A stretch of DNA of 52,200 bases, from positions 16,885-69,084 of the forward strand of contig VBHO01000026.1 of the NCBI GenBank assembly GCA_005882045.1, written 5' to 3'. Within the stretch, counting starts at the first letter, position 1. Every line of letters starts with the position of its first letter. Under the pieces are notes generated by a model that saw nothing but the letters and a program-made list of their open reading frames with translations, had not been told where the DNA came from and searched no databases. This stretch comes from Chloroflexota bacterium. GTDB taxonomy: Bacteria > Chloroflexota > Dormibacteria > CF-121. Shown piece after piece: positions 36,903 to 47,364 of this stretch. A program made the position numbers and the translations under genes.

Positions 36903-37736
36903 TCAGATACTGATCAAGAGAACCCCAGCCAGGGCCAGGACGATCCCGAGCTGTTGCAGCCGGGCCATTCGCTCCCCGAGCACGATTCGAGCCAGGATGA
37001 CCGTGGCTACGGGGTAAAGCGACGACAGAATGGAGACGATGCTCAGGAGGCCGACCGTGGTCGCAAAGGCGAAGAAGACATCGGCCGAAACATCGAGAAC
37101 GCCGACGGCAAACAGGGATGGCACGTCGGCTCGCCCAACCTTGAGGCGCGATCGGAACGCCAGCCCCAGGAGCAGCAGCGCCAGCACGCTGCCGGTTCGT
37201 GTCGCGAGCACACCCCACACGGGATCGGGCCGGCTCGCATAACGGATCGCCACCAGGAACACGCCGAACGCCAGCGCCGCCAGCAGCGCCAGGCCCACAC
37301 CGGGTACCAGCTTGCCTCCTGCCTGCGGCCGCCGATCGAAGGCCAGCAGCGCGATCCCGGCGAGGGTCACGACGATGCCCCCGAACTGCAGGACGCTTGG
37401 TCGTTCGCCCAGCAGCAAGCCAACGATGATCGGGACCACCGGTCCGGTCGCCGCAATCGTTGACACCACGCTGACCACACCGATCGCCATCCCGCGATAG
37501 GCAGCCGACAGGCCGACCAGGCCGACCAGCCCGGCCACGACGCCGGCCACGATCCAGGGGCCGGGCGCGATCGGGACGCCGCGGATGATGACGATGGCGG
37601 CGATCAGCAGGAGTGTCGGCGGTTGGGAGACGAACAGCACCGCGAAGGCGCCCAGGCGCCGGGTTTTGAAGCCGCCGATGAAATCACCAACGCCCCAGCT
37701 CAGGCTGGCGGCCAGCGCCAGCAGGACGGCCGTCAG
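36903..37736 (-). CDS. EamA/DMT-family transporter (probable CTG start)
   Basis: LALAASLSWGVGDFIGG, LLLGERP, LSSLYPVATVILARIVLGER; CTGA overlap with the upstream stop. Confidence 0.88.
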   Translation of the reverse strand: MTAVLLALAASLSWGVGDFIGGFKTRRLGAFAVLFVSQPPTLLLIAAIVIIRGVPIAPGPWIVAGVVAGLVGLVGLSAAYRGMAIGVVSVVSTIAATGPVVPIIVGLLLGERPSVLQFGGIVVTLAGIALLAFDRRPQAGGKLVPGVGLALLAALAFGVFLVAIRYASRPDPVWGVLATRTGSVLALLLLGLAFRSRLKVGRADVPSLFAVGVLDVSADVFFAFATTVGLLSIVSILSSLYPVATVILARIVLGERMARLQQLGIVLALAGVLLISI

Positions 37737-38824
37737 TCGGCGACCCGACGAACGGCGGTCCTGGTCAGGAGATCGCCAAGCCGCTGACGGCGGCGATTGC
37801 GCAACACCACAACGGCATCGATCGGCCACAGGGGGAAGGCGACGCCGACCAGGTTGCGCACGGCCGCCCGCCACCACCCGGGCACGCCCTCATTGGGTCC
37901 GTACACCGAGATGCCCATCAGCGTCTTGCCGATCGTCTGGCCGGTACGCGCCTCGATGGGGACGCGATACACGAGGGCGATAGCGGCCAGCAGCAGCAGG
38001 CCCTGCGGGTCGAGGACGATCTCGGTACTGTCCAGTCCGGATACCGCCGTCAGGATCAGGAGCGCGACCGTGAACACAATGGCCAGGTCGATCAGGCCGG
38101 CCCATACCCGGCGCACCAGCGGATATTGACGCCACGCGCTGGCGCGGAAAATCGCCGCGTCGATCGTGTCCGCCAGATCGCGGCGCACACCTAACACGAT
38201 CGGGTCCAGGGCTGAAAGCGCGCCGCGGCGTGCCAGCCAGCGCACCGAAAGGATGAGCGCGAGCGCGGCGAGGACCGTCACGGCGATGACGAAAAATCGG
38301 TGCTCGGCCCGGTGGAAGAGCCGGACGGCGGGCTGGCCGGCCAGCGCCCCGAGCCCAACAAAGATTGCGAGGTACACGACAACCGATGGAATCAGGCCCG
38401 CGGCAAAGGTGAGGCGAGGTATCTGGCTGACGCCCGCCACCTGGGTCGTGCTGATACGCAGCCCGGGAATCAGCCGGCCAATGAAAACCGCCAGCGGCCC
38501 ACGACGCCGGAGCAGGCGGGTCGCTCGTTCGAGCGCGGGTCGGAATCCCAACGCGTCCGCCGCCTTCAAAAGGGCAGGCCGACCGACGGCCGCGAAGACT
38601 TCGCGGCCAAGCATGGCGCCCAGCACGGTAGCCGCAAGGAGCGCGGCCACCATCGGAACCGGCTCCACCGTATCGCTGGCGATCGCGATCCCGGCGATGA
38701 TCAGGAGCAGGTCGCCCGGCGCGAAGGGGACTGGGATCCCGGTTTCTTCGATGAAGACGATGCCCGCGATCACGGCGATCAAGAGGTCGCCGCTCAGGCT
38801 GGCGATCGAGGTAATGGGGTTCAT
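37733..38824 (-). CDS. DedA (VTT) domain fused to an RDD domain
   Basis: FIEETGIPVPFAPGDLLL, FIGRLIPGLR (DedA); RRVWAGLID, GQTIGKTLMGISV, RQRLGDLLTRTAV (RDD). Confidence 0.85.
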   Translation of the reverse strand: MNPITSIASLSGDLLIAVIAGIVFIEETGIPVPFAPGDLLLIIAGIAIASDTVEPVPMVAALLAATVLGAMLGREVFAAVGRPALLKAADALGFRPALERATRLLRRRGPLAVFIGRLIPGLRISTTQVAGVSQIPRLTFAAGLIPSVVVYLAIFVGLGALAGQPAVRLFHRAEHRFFVIAVTVLAALALILSVRWLARRGALSALDPIVLGVRRDLADTIDAAIFRASAWRQYPLVRRVWAGLIDLAIVFTVALLILTAVSGLDSTEIVLDPQGLLLLAAIALVYRVPIEARTGQTIGKTLMGISVYGPNEGVPGWWRAAVRNLVGVAFPLWPIDAVVVLRNRRRQRLGDLLTRTAVRRVAD

Positions 38825-38977
38825 TCGGCGATCGTGGGGCTGGGGTCGAAGCCGTGATCCCGAAACGGAATCCGTAACGTCGCCCACGTCCGCACGGGGT
38901 TTGAGGCTAGCAGGTGGCGGCCTGCAAAGCGTCATGCGGGACGTAAGGCTCCGCTGTTACGTTGGCGTCACCGAATC

Positions 38978-40492
38978 ATGCGCGAGCCATCATCGCCGCG
39001 TAACCCGCTGTCAGCCTTCCATCGTCCGCTGGTGGCCCTGCTCGCCGCTACCGGCCTGGCGCTGGCCGGTCTGCCGACGATTCCGGTCCTGGCCACATCC
39101 AACCAGGCGCACCTCGATCGCGAGGTCCTCAAGGCGATGCAGGCCGGGCGTTCGATCAACGTCATCGTGGTCGCCCGCGGCGATCTGAACGTCCTGGAGG
39201 CCGATCTGCGGCGGTCTGGTCTGAAACGCACGGTGCGCGTCCCGATCGCACACGGGGTCGCCGTCCAACTCACACCCGCGTTCATCGACCGCTTCCGCGC
39301 CGACGCGAACGTCGCCCGCCTCATCTACGACGCTCCCGTCAGGCTTACCGATACGCCCTTCAACCCGACAGCACTTGCAACGGCGTACCCGGCGGTGGTT
39401 GACGCTCTCCCGGTCTGGAGCAACCCGCTGGCGCCGCTCACCGGACAGGGGATCGGGATCGCCGTGATCGACAGCGGCGTTGCGTCGCATCCGGACCTGG
39501 CCAATCGCGTGATCGTCAGCCAGAACTTCAATCCGAACGTCATTGGCAACGATGACGCCTACGGCCACGGCACCGCGGTCGCCGGCATCATCGCTGGTAA
39601 TGGCACCGCCGGCCTCGGACAGTACATCGGTGTCGCGCCGCAGGCGAACCTCATCAGCCTGCGGGTCAATGACGGCACCGGCGGTGCGCCCACCTCGGCG
39701 ATCATGAACGCCATTCTGTGGGCGGTCGTCAACCGGAATACCTACAACATCCGCGTGATCAACTTGTCCTTGCAGGCATCGGTGCAGGAGTCCTACCGCA
39801 CCAGCCCCATCGACGCGGCCGTGGAGTATGCCTGGCTGAAAGGACTCGTCGTGGTCGTCGCCGCCGGCAACAGTGGGCCCAACAGCGCGCTCTACGCGCC
39901 GGCGAACGATCCGTACGTGATCACGGTGGGCGCGACCGATGACCAGGGCACCGTCGTGACGACCGACGACACGCTGGCCGGTTTTTCGAGCTACGGTGTG
40001 ACCCAGGACGGCTTTACCAAGCCAGACTTCGTCGCGCCCGGCCGGCGCATCATCACCACGCTCGCCCCCAACAGCAGTTTCGCGCTGAACTACCCGAGCT
40101 TTCTGGTCGGTTCGCAGTACATCCAGCTCAGCGGCACCTCGGTGGCGGCCCCGGTCGTCAGCGGCGTCGCGGCGCTTTACATCGAGAGCAATCCGACGGT
40201 GCGCCCCGGACAGCTAAAGGGCGTGCTCCTGGCAACCGCTAATCGGCTGGGAGTCGCCGGTAGCGGCGCCGGGTACCCGGACGCCCAGCATGCGATCACC
40301 TATATCGGCCTGGTCGGGAATGCCGATCACGGCCTGGATCCGAACGACTACCTGAAGGTCCTCTACATGGCGGCGCACAGTCTGACGGTGCTGCCCGTCG
40401 TCTCCTGGGACAGTGTCTCCTGGGACAGCGTTTCCTGGGACACGGTGTCGTGGGACAGCGTCTCATGGGACGCGGTGAGCTGGAGCAACTAG
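38978..40492 (+). CDS. Secreted S8 (subtilisin, AprX-like) serine peptidase with a C-terminal Trp-repeat tail
   Basis: Signal peptide, prodomain, AVIDSG, GHGTAVAG, AAGNSG, SGTSVAAP; ends in six VSWxx units. Confidence 0.92.
   Translation: MREPSSPRNPLSAFHRPLVALLAATGLALAGLPTIPVLATSNQAHLDREVLKAMQAGRSINVIVVARGDLNVLEADLRRSGLKRTVRVPIAHGVAVQLTPAFIDRFRADANVARLIYDAPVRLTDTPFNPTALATAYPAVVDALPVWSNPLAPLTGQGIGIAVIDSGVASHPDLANRVIVSQNFNPNVIGNDDAYGHGTAVAGIIAGNGTAGLGQYIGVAPQANLISLRVNDGTGGAPTSAIMNAILWAVVNRNTYNIRVINLSLQASVQESYRTSPIDAAVEYAWLKGLVVVVAAGNSGPNSALYAPANDPYVITVGATDDQGTVVTTDDTLAGFSSYGVTQDGFTKPDFVAPGRRIITTLAPNSSFALNYPSFLVGSQYIQLSGTSVAAPVVSGVAALYIESNPTVRPGQLKGVLLATANRLGVAGSGAGYPDAQHAITYIGLVGNADHGLDPNDYLKVLYMAAHSLTVLPVVSWDSVSWDSVSWDTVSWDSVSWDAVSWSN
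40400..40489 (+). repeat. Six 15-nt coding repeats: VSWDS VSWDS VSWDT VSWDS VSWDA VSWSN
   Basis: 90 nt immediately before the stop; Val and Ser codons vary synonymously between units. Confidence 0.9.
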
Positions 40493-40494
40493 CC

Positions 40495-41208
40495 ATGGCC
40501 AGGGGTCGACTCTCGGCCGCCGCCCTCGCCTACATCGTCGGCGTCAGCGTTGCCGCGGTCGCGGCTGCGCTGATCTTCTGGCGCAGCGAGGGTCCCGCGG
40601 CCAGTTCTGCCGTCTTCGCCGTCCTCGTCGGTCTGGGCATGCTGGCGCACGCCTACCCAGTGCAGGGGTTCCGTCACCAGGCCTACCAGGTGACCTTGCC
40701 CTTCATCGTTGTCGCGGGCGCCATCTTGAACGCCTGGCAGCTTGTGGCGTTCATCGTCCTGATCCACGTGGCCGAGCAAGCCCGGCTTCGCCGGCGGCTC
40801 CACATCCAGTGGTTCAACGTCTGCAACTACTTCGTCAGCGCGGCCGTGGCCGCCGCCTTCTACCACCGGGCGACAGCGCTTCTCCCGGATGGCGCTCTCG
40901 GTCAGGTCGCCGCCGCCCTGGCGGCGGGCTGTGCCTTCGTCACGCTCAACCGGGTTCTGCTGGCCGGGGTGCTGTGGCTTGGCCGCGGCCTGTCGCCGCT
41001 CGCCTCGGGGCTTTTCCAGCCGGAGTTGCTGGCCGCCGACCTGATCACCGTCTGGATCGCCGGCCCAATGCTGGTCCTCACGCTGGAGGCAGGCCCCTGG
41101 ATGATCCTCGCCACCGCGGGCCCGCTGTTGCTGGCGCGCCTGGCGCTGTCGGCGATGCTGGCACGACGCGAGGCGCAGGTGCAGCCGGTCGAGGCAAGGG
41201 CCGCGTGA
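40495..41208 (+). CDS. Stand-alone multi-TM membrane sensor domain, paralogous to the N-terminus of the downstream cyclase
   Basis: Shared motifs: YPVQGFRHQAY / FKVKSPKHQSY, IQWFNVCN / IQAFNVAN, FVTLN / FVGLN. Confidence 0.8.
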   Translation: MARGRLSAAALAYIVGVSVAAVAAALIFWRSEGPAASSAVFAVLVGLGMLAHAYPVQGFRHQAYQVTLPFIVVAGAILNAWQLVAFIVLIHVAEQARLRRRLHIQWFNVCNYFVSAAVAAAFYHRATALLPDGALGQVAAALAAGCAFVTLNRVLLAGVLWLGRGLSPLASGLFQPELLAADLITVWIAGPMLVLTLEAGPWMILATAGPLLLARLALSAMLARREAQVQPVEARAA

Positions 41209-41213
41209 GGTCG

Positions 41214-42440
41214 ATGAACGATCTCCCGCGCGCGGCGCGGATTTATGTCGTAGCCGTGCTCGTGGCGGCGGTAATTGGCGGCATCGCCGGAATTCTGCTG
41301 GCGCCGCCGCGGCTAGATCGGCTGCCAGTCGCCATCGTGCTCCTTGTGTGCGCGACGATCGCGCAGCAGTTCAAGGTCAAGAGCCCCAAGCACCAGTCCT
41401 ACTACACAACGACCGTCTTTTTCTTCGCCGGGGCCGTTCTCCTCCATCCGGCCTACATCATCGCCATCATCCTCGCCGCCCACGCCGTGGAGTCACTCCG
41501 CGTGCGCTACCGCTGGTACATCCAGGCTTTCAACGTCGCGAACTTCGTGCTTTGCTCGATCGCCGCCGGCGCGATCGCTGGCATTGGCCAGCCAACTGAG
41601 CCTTCGAGCACAGGAGGCGCCGCCTTTTACGTGGCGCTCGCGGGGCTGACGTTTGTTGGCCTCAATCACTTTCTGACGGCCCTGGTGATCATGTGGGCGC
41701 GCGGCGTCTCGATTGCGCGCGCCGGCACCATGGATTGGGAGAACGTGGGGACCGACCTCGCGTTGATGTCGGTGGGCGCGCTCGGATCGCTACTCTGGCT
41801 CAAGAATCCCTGGCTGGTGCCGCTTTGCCTCGGCCCACTGTTCTTGATCTACCGATCGCTGCTCGTCCCGAGCCTCAAAGAGGAGGCGCGGACCGACCCG
41901 AAAACCGCGCTGGCCAATATGAAGCACTGGAACCAGCTGGCGCAGGCAGAGGTCGAGCGCGCCCGTCGTTTCGGCCGTCCCCTCAGCGTCGTGCTCGCCG
42001 ACTTCGACTTGCTCCGCGACGTCAACAATCGATATGGCCACCTGATGGGCGACCAGATGATCCGGCGGGTGGCCGACGCGATCCGAGCGTCGCTGCGCGA
42101 GTACGATGTGCCGGCCCGTTTCGGCGGCGACGAATTTGCCGTCCTCATGCCGGAAACCACGCTCCCCGAGGCGATGGCGGTCGCCGAGCGAATCCGACGC
42201 GAGGTCGAGTCGATCGTGCTCAAGAGCGGAGAGGGCTCGGTCCCGGCGAGTGTCAGCATCGGGGTCGCGCTGTTCCCCGCACACGGACGAACTGCGTCGG
42301 ACCTGCTGGCCGCAGCCGACCGCGCCGTCTATCAGGCCAAGGCGCTGGGTCGTAACCGCGTCTGGGCGTTTGCCGAGCGCGAGGACGAGAACATGCGGCC
42401 GATCATCGTCACGGCGCCCTCGAGGCGCGAGGCGAGTTAG
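41214..42440 (+). CDS. Membrane-bound diguanylate cyclase
   Basis: TM sensor region; TDPKTALAN, VNNRYGHLMGD, I-site REYD, RFGGDEF, ADRAVYQAKALGRN. Confidence 0.93.
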   Translation: MNDLPRAARIYVVAVLVAAVIGGIAGILLAPPRLDRLPVAIVLLVCATIAQQFKVKSPKHQSYYTTTVFFFAGAVLLHPAYIIAIILAAHAVESLRVRYRWYIQAFNVANFVLCSIAAGAIAGIGQPTEPSSTGGAAFYVALAGLTFVGLNHFLTALVIMWARGVSIARAGTMDWENVGTDLALMSVGALGSLLWLKNPWLVPLCLGPLFLIYRSLLVPSLKEEARTDPKTALANMKHWNQLAQAEVERARRFGRPLSVVLADFDLLRDVNNRYGHLMGDQMIRRVADAIRASLREYDVPARFGGDEFAVLMPETTLPEAMAVAERIRREVESIVLKSGEGSVPASVSIGVALFPAHGRTASDLLAAADRAVYQAKALGRNRVWAFAEREDENMRPIIVTAPSRREAS

Positions 42441-44214: not shown

Positions 44215-47200
44215 TTAAGTCGTCGAGACTTCTTCTTCGATCGGATCGGGGCTGGACCCGTTGGCCGGCGTTTCCTCGGCGGACGCGAGGACGACGGATG
44301 GCCCTGGCAGGCGGATGATGGTCCAGTCGTCGCTCTTCTCGACGCGGTCGGCGAGCGTCTCATCCTTGGAAAAGAGGATGACCTGATGGTCGAGGCGGCC
44401 GAGCTCGTCCATCGCGGCGCGCAGTCGGCGGCGATCCGCGTGCACCAGCGCCTCGTCGAGGAGCAGGGGAGGTGGCTCCGCGTTGCCACCGATGATCCGC
44501 GCCAGCGCCAGACGCTCGAGTAAGTAGATCAGCGACCTGGTGCCGAGGCTCAGGTTGTCGACATCTTTATATGCCCGCTGGTCCTGGGTCTTGACGGAGA
44601 GCGCGAGGTCTTCTCCGATCCGCACGTCGCGGTAGCGACCGTTCGTAATCGGGGACAGCTGGCCCTGCAGCTGCGACTTGAGGCGCGGGATCACGGCGCG
44701 CCGCACCGACTTGGCCGCCGCCTCCAGTGTCTCGATCGCGAGGTCGTAGGCGTGCGCCTCCGCCTCGAGCTCTTGCAGCTGTTCGCCGATGGTGGCAATC
44801 TCCTCCTCGAGCGCGGCGACATCGCCGATCTGCGTCAGCCGATCGTTCAAGAGCTCCTCCGCGCGAGCCCGTTCCTCCTGGGCTCGCTCCTTGACGTCAC
44901 GGTGTTGATCGCGCTGCCGTTCGAGCTCGGCCAGGGGGAGCGCCGCGAACTCGGCCGCCCGCGCCGGGTCGACGCTTTTGCCCACCTCGCCCAGCTGGCG
45001 GGTGAGGTCATCGACGAGCTGGCGAAGCGATCCCGCCTCGTCCGCGGTGACGCCGCCTCGCTGCGACTCCAGCTCGGCCAGTCGAACGCTCGACGTCCGG
45101 TAAGCCTCGGCGTGACTGACCGCGGCCTCCCACGCCACGGCCGCGCCCTCCATATCGGGATCGGTAATGCCGGCCCGCGTGTAGATCGCCGCCAGCTGGC
45201 GGGTGTACTCATCGGCCTTGGCGCGCTCGGCCATCGAGCGCTCGCTCGGAGCGCGAAGTTGCGCCAGCTGGGCGTCGAGCTGCTCGATTCGGGTGCGAAC
45301 CTGCTGCGCCTGGCGCTCGGCCTCGCAGCCGGCGATAAAGTCGCGTGCCGCGCCCAGCGCCTCGCGCCGGTCGAACCCGAGCCGGTCGAGCAAGCTGTGC
45401 AGCTGCTGCCGCAGCGATTCCCGTCGCTGGTCCATTTCGGTTTCAGCTCGCGTCGCCTCCAGCGAGCGCTGGCTCGCAGCGTTCCAGGCGAGGCTGTCCT
45501 GGGCCAGCGACTCCACGTCCCCGGCGGTCGCCTCGACCGCCTCCTCGGTGGGAGCCGGCTGAGAAAGACCCCAGGATCCCACCAGCTCGCGCAGGGTTCG
45601 ACCGGCGATCTGCGCCCGCTCTTCCAACTCGGTGGCCTGCCGATCCAGCTCGAGGCGGGTGGCGTCGTAGCGGACCTTCTGCAGGTGCTCGACAAGCGCC
45701 TGCTGCAGCTCGCCGGAGCTGCGGACGCCCCACGGCTGCAGGATCTCCCGGCGCCTGACGCGAGCCTCGTCTTTGGCCCGAAGGCGGCGGTCGACCTCTC
45801 GGACCGCGGCGCCGCGAACCCAGATGCCGATGCCGGTCGACAACACGCCCATGCCAAGCAGGAAGAAGGCGGCTCCGCTAAGCGGCAGTGGCATATTGCT
45901 CTGCAGCGCGAGAAAGGCGACCAGGATCGCCATCGCCGTGAGCAGCAGGCCGCCGAGCATGGCGCCCAGGAAGGTGCGCTGCCGGCTGCGGGCGCGCTCG
46001 GCCATCGCCTCCTCGCGCCGCATGGCCTCCTCAGATTGCTGGCCTGCCTTGATGACGTCCGGAACTTCTCGGTAGCGCGCGATATCGTGCTTGAGCTGCT
46101 CCAGCCGTGGGGGCAGCTCGGCACCCGCGCGCTGGCGCGCTTCAGTGGCGACATTGTGGCGCTCGCGCCATTCCGAGTAGACACGCTGGAACTCCATCTG
46201 CCGGGCAGGCCAATCGAGGCTCTGGCCGATCAAGCCCGGATGACGCTCGGCGATCCGGCGCGCCTCTTCGGCGGCCGTCTGGGCCCGCAGATGGACCTCG
46301 GGGGCCTGGGCATCGGCCACATTGAGTGAGGTCAGCAGTTCACGGCCTTGCGCGTCCGATTCCAGCTTGGCGCGCTCGGCCTCGAGCTGCTGCACCTGCG
46401 CGGCGTTCTCCGCGGCTCGGCGTTCGAAGTCTTCCTGCGCCTCGCGGGTTGCTCGTAGGTGACTGCGCAACTCCTGGAGCTCGGACTGCCGGTCGAGGGG
46501 GAACATGGCAAAGCGCGTGTGATCCTCTTGTCTCGCCCGCTCGTCCGTGATCGCCCGCTCGAGTGTTTCGACACGCTCCAGGCGATGACGGGCCTCGTCC
46601 AGGCGGGAGCCGAGGACGGCAGCGTCGAGCAATTGGACCACCGCCAGCTCCGCCTCGGTCAGCGCCGACACGGTCTCGCGCTTCTGTGCCAGCTCGTCGA
46701 CGGCGCTGCGAGCCTGGCGGGCGGCCGTGAGCTGCCGCTCCACGTCGGAGAGCCGGCTTTCGAGGTCGTGCAGCGGGCCGGTGCGGCCGCGCGGCTTTCC
46801 GATGCGCTGCGCCCGTTCCTGACGGAGCCGATCGAGCACGGCTTGCGCGGTCCGGTCGGGATGCGCCGAGTCCGCCAATGCCACGATCGCTTCCTTGATG
46901 CTGCCGGCGTCCTCGAGACGCAACACCTCGCTGCGCGAGATGCAGGCGGTGTTGGTGTAGATGTCGCGGCTGATGCCGAGCAACTGCCGTCCAATCTGGA
47001 GCCCACCCCAGGGGTCGCGCTCGAACCGGTCGTTCAGCTCCGCGCCGTTGGCGAGGTCGAGCACCCGAACCGCGTCGGCGTCGAGGTCGCGCTCGACGCG
47101 TAGCCTCGAGCCGTCGTCCAGCTCGAATTCGAGCGCGAGCCCGAAGCCGCCACCCTCCCACGGCCGCCAGCGATCGGTGCGCTCGACGATTGCGGATCGG

Positions 47201-47364
47201 CGGTCGCCGGACTCGAGACCGTAGAGGCCGGTCACGATCGCTTCCTGCAACGTCGACTTCCCGGCTTCGTTCGGCCCCACCACAAGGTTCATGGCAGGAC
47301 CGAAGTGCAGGTCCATACCTTGCAGGGTGCCAAAGCCTCCGATCTCGATGCGCGTCAGGCGCAT
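44215..47364 (-). CDS. Rad50/SbcC-like (YhaN-type) coiled-coil ATPase with two central TM helices
   Basis: Walker A GPNEAGKST, long coiled coils, hydrophobic hairpin FLGAMLGGLLL..GIGIWV, signature LSLGT, Walker B LLLDEALVHAD. Confidence 0.88.
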   Translation of the reverse strand: MRLTRIEIGGFGTLQGMDLHFGPAMNLVVGPNEAGKSTLQEAIVTGLYGLESGDRRSAIVERTDRWRPWEGGGFGLALEFELDDGSRLRVERDLDADAVRVLDLANGAELNDRFERDPWGGLQIGRQLLGISRDIYTNTACISRSEVLRLEDAGSIKEAIVALADSAHPDRTAQAVLDRLRQERAQRIGKPRGRTGPLHDLESRLSDVERQLTAARQARSAVDELAQKRETVSALTEAELAVVQLLDAAVLGSRLDEARHRLERVETLERAITDERARQEDHTRFAMFPLDRQSELQELRSHLRATREAQEDFERRAAENAAQVQQLEAERAKLESDAQGRELLTSLNVADAQAPEVHLRAQTAAEEARRIAERHPGLIGQSLDWPARQMEFQRVYSEWRERHNVATEARQRAGAELPPRLEQLKHDIARYREVPDVIKAGQQSEEAMRREEAMAERARSRQRTFLGAMLGGLLLTAMAILVAFLALQSNMPLPLSGAAFFLLGMGVLSTGIGIWVRGAAVREVDRRLRAKDEARVRRREILQPWGVRSSGELQQALVEHLQKVRYDATRLELDRQATELEERAQIAGRTLRELVGSWGLSQPAPTEEAVEATAGDVESLAQDSLAWNAASQRSLEATRAETEMDQRRESLRQQLHSLLDRLGFDRREALGAARDFIAGCEAERQAQQVRTRIEQLDAQLAQLRAPSERSMAERAKADEYTRQLAAIYTRAGITDPDMEGAAVAWEAAVSHAEAYRTSSVRLAELESQRGGVTADEAGSLRQLVDDLTRQLGEVGKSVDPARAAEFAALPLAELERQRDQHRDVKERAQEERARAEELLNDRLTQIGDVAALEEEIATIGEQLQELEAEAHAYDLAIETLEAAAKSVRRAVIPRLKSQLQGQLSPITNGRYRDVRIGEDLALSVKTQDQRAYKDVDNLSLGTRSLIYLLERLALARIIGGNAEPPPLLLDEALVHADRRRLRAAMDELGRLDHQVILFSKDETLADRVEKSDDWTIIRLPGPSVVLASAEETPANGSSPDPIEEEVSTT

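Follow-up and report, generated by a model that had tools for sequence, protein, structure and literature searches.

The 52,200-nucleotide stretch of DNA analyzed here (the window; Chloroflexota bacterium, class Dormibacteria, GenBank assembly GCA_005882045.1, contig VBHO01000026.1, positions 16,885 to 69,084) carries, at positions 38978 to 42440 of its forward strand, a three-gene cassette that joins a subtilase of a clade with tryptophan-repeat tails to signaling proteins built on a divergent MASE9 membrane module. The same pairing in distant soil bacteria points to an undescribed protease-plus-sensor signaling unit. The feature is real and conserved and couples a protease to second-messenger signaling, in this case through cyclic di-GMP (c-di-GMP); its mechanism is unproven, and the cassette gives experiments direct access to an orphan sensor domain. 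The explanation that we favor, with a confidence that stops a little short of even, is that the conserved cassette is a protease-sensor feedback module operating as a closed loop.

The first gene encodes a putatively secreted S8 subtilase (P0002, 504 amino acids [aa]; 38978 to 40492), recognized as an open reading frame (ORF) with a Pfam Peptidase_S8 domain. It is followed by the gene for a stand-alone, MASE9-like membrane protein that has no output domain (P0001, 237 aa; 40495 to 41208) and by that for a predicted diguanylate cyclase (P0003, 408 aa; 41214 to 42440), in which a MASE9-like membrane domain (approximately aa 1 to 215) precedes a GGDEF domain. The preliminary description of this DNA had placed the start of the membrane protein 2 nucleotides (nt) after the protease, and the ATG at 40495 indeed follows the subtilase stop codon at 40490 to 40492 with an intergenic gap of 2 nt; the cyclase gene starts 5 nt past the stop of P0001. 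The three genes most likely form one transcript, and a scan for promoters and terminators yielded nothing useful. The names attached to near-identical proteins in public databases suggest Dormibacteraeota-like bacteria.

The protease and its neighbors are inherited together. Of 41 genomes of the source family, 24 carry the protease, and precisely this set of 24 also carries both membrane genes, which, like the protease, are missing from the other 17 (a count that includes the unpublished genome G423, without which it becomes 23 of 40). By their coordinates, the S8, membrane-only, and membrane-GGDEF genes stand side by side on one strand, with their order unchanged, in 23 of these genomes; the assembly of the last one, G440, is fragmented. 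Since the cassette is present in 16 of the 27 genomes of the source genus and is never split, it is patchy yet moves as a unit. Outside the family, we considered 17 S8 loci with a period-5 tail from Chloroflexota and Actinomycetota, ascertained via the protease or the tail (the tail of one, G046, being masked by N). A signal transduction gene lies directly downstream and on the same strand in 15 of these loci, 11 of the 15 genes carry GGDEF, EAL, or HD-GYP domains, and the profiles of the membrane module match the downstream protein in 13 of the 17 cases. Beyond the source family, no fewer than nine Chloroflexota families, as well as Actinomycetota records, show the protease-then-sensor order, with different flanking genes. 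As a control, we took 16 S8 loci lacking a period-5 tail, and none of them had a GGDEF domain or the membrane module within 1.5 kb; the short flanks make this comparison a rough one. The preliminary description had staked its proposal on conserved linkage across genomes, and the linkage holds, with co-occurrence in all 24 family genomes that carry the protease and in 15 of 17 loci outside; its suggestion that the same transmembrane domain might be found with GGDEF, HD-GYP, or kinase outputs beside tailed S8 proteases was also borne out. Because this linkage is strongly conserved, our results support that the protease and the membrane sensor/c-di-GMP genes constitute one functional unit.

The signaling gene next to the protease takes many forms. 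We found a membrane-GGDEF gene followed by a GGDEF-EAL gene (G040), a membrane-HD-GYP gene followed by a membrane-GGDEF gene (G061), membrane-HD-GYP-PAS-GGDEF proteins (G053 and G110), and membrane-GAF-GGDEF-EAL proteins (G009, G058, G083, G046, and the Acidimicrobiales locus L051). A single protein with a membrane-GGDEF-membrane-HD-GYP arrangement is encoded in the Gaiellaceae locus L129 (6429 to 9230, forward strand), and one with a membrane-GGDEF-membrane-HisKA-HATPase arrangement, followed by a receiver gene, in L095 (6325 to 9288, forward strand); both look like fusions of the two genes that are separate in G061. The other downstream genes encode a membrane-HisKA-HATPase protein (G064), a membrane-GAF-SpoIIE-HATPase_c_2 protein (Frankiaceae locus L119), and, each cut by a contig end, a class III cyclase domain (G068) and a membrane module (G016). 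Among the loci examined, the output-less paralogue occurs as a separate, stand-alone gene only in the source family. Of note, TadE/G-like and DUF7305 genes of the Flp-pilus type stand just upstream of the tail-bearing subtilase of G040 (L036, 8519 to 12657, reverse strand), which hints at a surface-structure context.

P0002 belongs to the Peptidase_S8 family (PF00082), with a score of 172.3 bits against a cutoff of 21.8 (E value, 1.9e-50) over aa 156 to 428 (39443 to 40261). The intact D/H/N/S set reported earlier is there, the triad and oxyanion residues lying in the usual motifs as D165 (IDSG), H197 (HGT), N298 (GNSG), and S388 (GTS), and all four are invariant in an alignment of 53 sequences that includes homologues at 33 to 44% identity from other families. 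We read the lone N-terminal hydrophobic segment found by a hydropathy scan (aa 19 to 37) as a candidate signal peptide; next come a propeptide-like stretch, the catalytic domain, and finally the Trp-repeat tail. An AlphaFold2 model of the protein has a mean predicted local distance difference test (pLDDT) score of 80.3, and the nearest solved structures, 9ues and 3afg (E value, ∼1e-47), correspond to the catalytic domain only. An assignment as a type VII secretion mycosin (TIGR03921) was rejected, the score of 170.3 bits lying below the equivalog cutoff of 278.75.

The tail occupies aa 475 to 504 (40400 to 40489), as shown by the sequence itself, repeat finding, and alignments, and consists of six Trp-centered pentapeptide units, VSWDS-VSWDS-VSWDT-VSWDS-VSWDA-VSWSN, which end the subtilase as described previously. 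Tandem Repeats Finder reported a period of 15, 4.9 copies, and 81% matches for the tail DNA. Because the Val codons (GTC, GTC, GTT, GTG, GTC, and GTG in the successive units) and the Ser codons (TCC, TCC, TCC, TCG, TCA, and AGC) vary, the units differ for the most part synonymously, in agreement with the earlier observation. The tail is more than a chance feature, since, among 121 homologues with identities as low as 65%, 120 retain it and 114 have exactly six units, the others having four (two sequences), five (three), or eight (one). The units also have conserved peculiarities: the last residue of unit 5 is Ala in most homologues and unit 6 has Ser or Gly instead of Asp, and W477, W482, W487, and W492 are invariant in the 53-sequence alignment. 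In the AlphaFold2 model, the pLDDT is 78 to 82 over aa 471 to 490, the first three units standing at about 80, and falls to 41 at the end; DSSP assigns short helical turns at four of the six units and no strands. Given the fixed length, the conserved unit-specific differences, and the model confidence of the first three units, the tail looks like a folded structural element rather than a string of releasable peptides. P0002 has no match to the pentapeptide-repeat families PF00805 and PF01469 at E values up to 0.01, and the VNWGS tail of a relative (L045) matches PF01469 with 32.7 bits against a cutoff of 26.4 (E value, 6.7e-8). The 17-unit NSWSG tail of another relative, folded alone, gave an unusable model (mean pLDDT, 43.5). 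Prediction of a complex between P0001 (47-row alignment) and the last 69 residues of P0002 (53-row alignment) returned a score of 0.00 in two runs performed without controls, which speaks neither for nor against binding.

A tail with Trp at every fifth residue defines a recognizable clade of subtilases, which is tied to c-di-GMP twice over, through neighboring enzymes and through upstream riboswitches. Across 151 sampled genomes of the phylum, the best nine nonself matches to the protease are all Trp tailed, eight with period 5 and one (G002) with period 6. The period-5 units are lineage specific (VSWDS, ASWGS, LNWDS, MRWDQ, VAWNS, and ASWTN), and weaker matches in the same sample carry NSWSG, GQWSG, and LTWDL tails; further types are VNWGS, STSWN, and QTAWD. 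A pattern scan of genome collections, in which only TCN-encoded Ser-Trp repeats are detectable and most of the matches listed are off-frame Pro/Ser/Trp repeats, added KSWSG, VSWTD, TSSWS, NSWYG, and ASWSS tails, on proteins whose S8 domain was confirmed with Pfam. A phylum-wide DNA pattern of five Trp codons with a period of 15 was swamped by off-frame simple repeats and served only as a pointer to G343; its counts enter none of our tallies, and four unpublished genomes (G173, G272, G344, and G145) figure among its matches and nowhere else. The repeat region of the G046 subtilase (L049, 3453 to 5006, forward strand) reads as N, probably because the repeat led to a gap in the assembly or to masking, and such tails may therefore be underassembled in draft genomes. 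Period-6 Trp tails of the GGDTWT or GGQTWT type, ending in VYVSYINL or VTFVSFVNL, occur in L046 (6253 to 7938, reverse strand) and L047 (3344 to 5260, forward strand), and no c-di-GMP gene lies directly downstream of these two subtilases; in G002, a divergent GAF-SpoIIE gene is located on the other side of the period-6 subtilase. We rejected the period-6 tails of G002 and G015 as parts of the same module, as they have no downstream signaling gene.

P0003 is, by its domains and motifs, a predicted diguanylate cyclase. Its GGDEF domain (aa 222 to 384; 41877 to 42365) scores 133.8 bits against PF00990 (cutoff, 23.8; E value, 6.3e-39) and 154.8 bits against TIGR00254 (cutoff, 37.4; E value, 1.6e-45). 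The GGDEF motif (aa 304 to 308; 42123 to 42137) and, five residues upstream, the RxxD I site (REYD, aa 295 to 298; 42096 to 42107) are intact, as had been noted. The paralogy previously recognized between P0001 and the N terminus of P0003 corresponds to 30% identity over 194 aa (E value, 1e-15).

The membrane module of the S8-linked signaling proteins is, judging from profile comparisons, a divergent MASE9, to which the proteins of the source cassette are linked only through their relatives. MASE9 (PF20972) has been described as an N-terminal membrane domain of HD-GYP, GGDEF, and GGDEF-EAL proteins, promiscuous with respect to its outputs, with eight membrane segments, two of which form a short intramembrane hairpin, and with very short outer loops; the membrane interior is the proposed site of ligand binding (Galperin and Chou, bioRxiv 10.1101/2021.11.05.467447). 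A hydropathy scan of P0001 finds approximately six to seven hydrophobic segments, compared with eight in that description. We built profiles for the modules linked to GGDEF (A1), HD-GYP (A2), and GAF-GGDEF-EAL (A4). A1 and A2 align by hhalign with a probability of 95% (E value, 2.5e-8), and A4 is weakly connected in this way (23% with A2 and 5% with A1); its relation to A1 and A2 is indicated by the L051 protein, which matches both A4 (4.9e-33) and A1 (3e-9), and by an R/K-x-x-F-N motif that the modules share by eye. The Pfam MASE9 model scores above its cutoff in two S8-linked proteins (L129, 27.3 bits; L176, 25.0 bits), is marginal in the G191 orthologue of the stand-alone protein (24.3 bits, counting neighbors in frame), and gives hits in three of nine A1 members (best E value, 0.0016), several relatives being subthreshold; a MASE9 search of the source genome gave no match at E values up to 0.01. 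In the nearest ESM Atlas clusters, 15 to 46% of the members carry MASE9, which we take as a lead only. Starting conversely from the 10 Pfam-MASE9 loci of the class, all three that match A2 have a Trp-tailed S8 gene directly upstream, and none of the seven that match no A1, A2, or A4 profile has such a neighbor.

Tail and sensor vary together. Tails of the xxWSG type (NSWSG, GQWSG, and KSWSG; G009, G058, G083, and L051) pair with the A4 module and GAF-GGDEF-EAL outputs in two families of Chloroflexota, of which one belongs to the source class, and in the Acidimicrobiales record. The V/A/L-x-W-D/G/N/T tails pair with A1 and A2 modules, including the VSWTD tail of the Gaiellaceae locus L129, which has an A1/A2-type pairing and closely resembles VSWDS. 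Tail type tracks sensor subtype and not taxonomy, a qualitative correspondence uncorrected for shared descent of the whole cassette. The covariation of repeat and sensor sequence envisaged in the preliminary description is seen at this qualitative level.

In riboswitch-bearing relatives, the aptamers place the protease under predicted c-di-GMP control. Aptamers of the c-di-GMP-I class (GEMM-I; Rfam RF01051 and RF03167) score above the Rfam gathering threshold immediately before the gene for the tailed subtilase in G009, G058, G061, G046, and G343. These c-di-GMP-I or c-di-GMP-I-GGC elements lie on the forward strand at L018:1057-1139, L022:1058-1140, L035:2074-2159, and L049:3348-3436 (the G046 locus) and on the reverse strand at L045:9707-9791; in G009, going by the coordinates, 17 nt separate the end of the aptamer from the earliest start codon of the S8 frame. 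A search of the window with Rfam returned only a chance microRNA-like match. The earlier suggestion of a solenoid or matrix element controlled by c-di-GMP gains indirect support for its c-di-GMP part from the riboswitches before related tailed proteases.

Our working hypothesis is that the exported protease would stay at the cell surface, where the Trp-rich tail, as a fixed structural element, would bring it to the membrane interface. The MASE9-like module, which has almost no extracellular loops, would read the presence or the processing state of the protease there, within the membrane, and would regulate the diguanylate cyclase to which it is attached. Dimers are the active form of GGDEF enzymes, and the output-less paralogue probably pairs with the membrane domain of the cyclase, as a heterodimer, and would serve as a cosensor or modulator. 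The c-di-GMP produced would feed back on protease production, through the riboswitch in some lineages and through cotranscription or another effector here. Because riboswitches precede the gene in relatives, the protease would lie downstream of c-di-GMP; because the protease is kept while the outputs change, one sensor subfamily is nearly exclusive, and tail and sensor covary, it would also lie on the input side of the sensor, and a closed loop fits both lines of evidence. A bolder version, which we put forward as a possibility that we rather doubt, is that the Trp tail is the cognate input of a MASE9-type subfamily, within a self-monitoring circuit that spread as a cassette through both Chloroflexota and Actinomycetota and whose outputs (synthesis or breakdown of c-di-GMP, a histidine kinase, or a PP2C phosphatase) can be exchanged.

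A plainer reading is that the subtilase is an effector governed by c-di-GMP, for instance in the remodeling of the biofilm matrix or of the cell surface, and that the neighboring enzyme is a local source or sink; the sensor would then read something unrelated to the protease, and the tail would serve for wall or matrix retention or as a small beta-helical stabilizer. The riboswitches directly upstream of S8 genes in five related loci agree with it, in particular that of G343, where no signaling gene is present, as does a tail of fixed length that is modeled with fair confidence. Yet this reading leaves unexplained why the same membrane-module subfamily occurs in 13 of 17 loci, why the c-di-GMP enzymes give way to kinase, PP2C-phosphatase, and class III cyclase outputs while the protease is retained, and why the kind of tail follows the sensor subtype from phylum to phylum, so that we consider it possible but on the whole unlikely. 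That the genes are neighbors merely by common descent, their adjacency having no meaning, would be compatible with the strongest counts coming mostly from one family of related genomes, but nine or more other Chloroflexota families and Actinomycetota records have the same order amid differing flanks, the cassette occurs always as a unit in 16 of 27 genomes of one genus, and 0 of 16 control S8 loci have such a neighbor; we therefore give this explanation very little credence.

The preliminary description had imagined that the protease releases multiple copies of a short peptide from its own tail, sensed by a membrane pair that sets c-di-GMP; in a fuller version of this model, the protease would cut its own or sister tails into several identical pentapeptides, which would diffuse and act as an autoinducer. 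The conserved linkage to a membrane sensor family is in line with such a signal, and tail sequences vary between lineages as signaling specificities would; subtilisins prefer large hydrophobic P1 residues, so that a cut after each Trp is chemically plausible, and S8 proteases release the Phr pentapeptides of Bacillus. However, the units are not interchangeable copies, since 114 of 121 homologues contain six of them, neither more nor fewer, and conserved substitutions set particular units apart. Within the family, the tail is also nearly invariant where identity over the rest of the protein falls as low as 65%, unlike a pherotype-style diversification, its first three units are modeled at a pLDDT of about 80, and the very short outer loops described for MASE9 would poorly suit a soluble peptide ligand. 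We thus regard a released peptide as improbable: of the original proposal, a protease-sensor-c-di-GMP system linked as one unit stands, and the self-released xSWD signal is not favored.

Several observations weigh against the feedback module that we prefer. P0001 and P0003 both fall below the Pfam MASE9 cutoff (P0001, 14.8 bits against 24.3; E value, 0.028), and an A1-type membrane-GGDEF gene in G055 has no S8 gene beside it and follows a kinase and regulator pair. The signaling neighbor is absent from 2 of the 17 tail-bearing S8 loci (G343 and the Gaiellaceae locus L069). No riboswitch was found in the window at E values up to 1, nor in two family relatives searched, and, where riboswitches do occur, their action on the protease gene is already explained by the plain output model. 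The cross-phylum sample is small, with at least five real tail proteins among the 80 loci fetched from the genome-collection scan, and the co-occurrence counted in the family overstates the number of events because related genomes are not independent. Finally, that the tail touches the membrane module or is sensed by it is something that we only infer.

Upstream of the cassette in the window, some 42 nt from the protease start, a divergent gene (37733 to 38935, reverse strand) encodes a VTT (DedA-type) membrane domain fused to an RDD domain, and since the related genomes G017 and G128 carry a DUF885 gene at this position, the upstream flank is not conserved. On the 3′ side, a 1,049-aa ORF (44215 to 47364, reverse strand) has a P-loop ATPase-like start, charged coiled-coil-like stretches, and a central hydrophobic segment; an ORF resembling it is found 3′ of the cassette in G017.

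Most membrane sensor domains of c-di-GMP enzymes, MASE9 among them, have no known input. A partner gene that stays constant beside one sensor subfamily while the outputs change is a concrete and testable lead to the input of MASE9, and the double tie of the tailed subtilase clade to c-di-GMP suggests a role for secreted proteolysis in sessile/motile or matrix decisions in poorly studied soil phyla (Dormibacteria-like Chloroflexota, Acidimicrobiia, and Thermoleophilia). The component families are known, and their assembly was not found in print: full-text searches, with subscription journals and supplements outside their coverage, retrieved no description of the repeat, of Trp-rich subtilase tails, or of a subtilase/c-di-GMP pairing. 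The initial statement that no characterized system has this layout agrees with these searches, but needs the amendment that the sensor domain belongs to a described family.

Among known systems, LapD-LapG of Pseudomonas also couples a secreted or periplasmic protease to an inner membrane c-di-GMP protein, through a Trp-dependent contact on the outer face. The likeness, a protease together with a membrane c-di-GMP protein, is an analogy without homology: LapG is a C93-family cysteine protease and LapD a degenerate GGDEF-EAL receptor with a periplasmic domain, whereas the cassette has an S8 subtilase and an intact GGDEF domain on a polytopic MASE9-like module, and it shows neither the LapD nor the LapG domains. 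For the released-peptide model, the nearest precedent is Rap-Phr of Bacillus, in which Phr peptides, encoded by separate small genes, are freed as pentapeptides by S8 proteases, imported, and sensed by cytoplasmic Rap proteins; here, in contrast and without homology, the repeats are fused to the protease in fixed number and the partner is a membrane domain. The tail shares with pentapeptide-repeat beta-helix proteins (PF00805 and PF01469), such as MfpA and Qnr, a period of 5 and hydrophobic residues at the center and at position −2 (V/A/L-x-W), but has Trp instead of Leu or Phe at the center and only six units, or about 1.5 coils. As in GEMM-I regulons, the proteases of relatives are preceded by such a riboswitch, whereas the tie to c-di-GMP is here the cotranscribed cyclase. 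The closest relation is to MASE9 itself, whose N-terminal placement in HD-GYP, GGDEF, and GGDEF-EAL proteins and conserved FN-type motif are found again in our modules. The passages that we consulted in the paper describing that family mention no partner protein, stand-alone form, or ligand (bioRxiv 10.1101/2021.11.05.467447). The S8-linked modules differ in forming subfamilies of their own, A1, A2, and A4, and the stand-alone P0001 represents an additional architecture of this domain.

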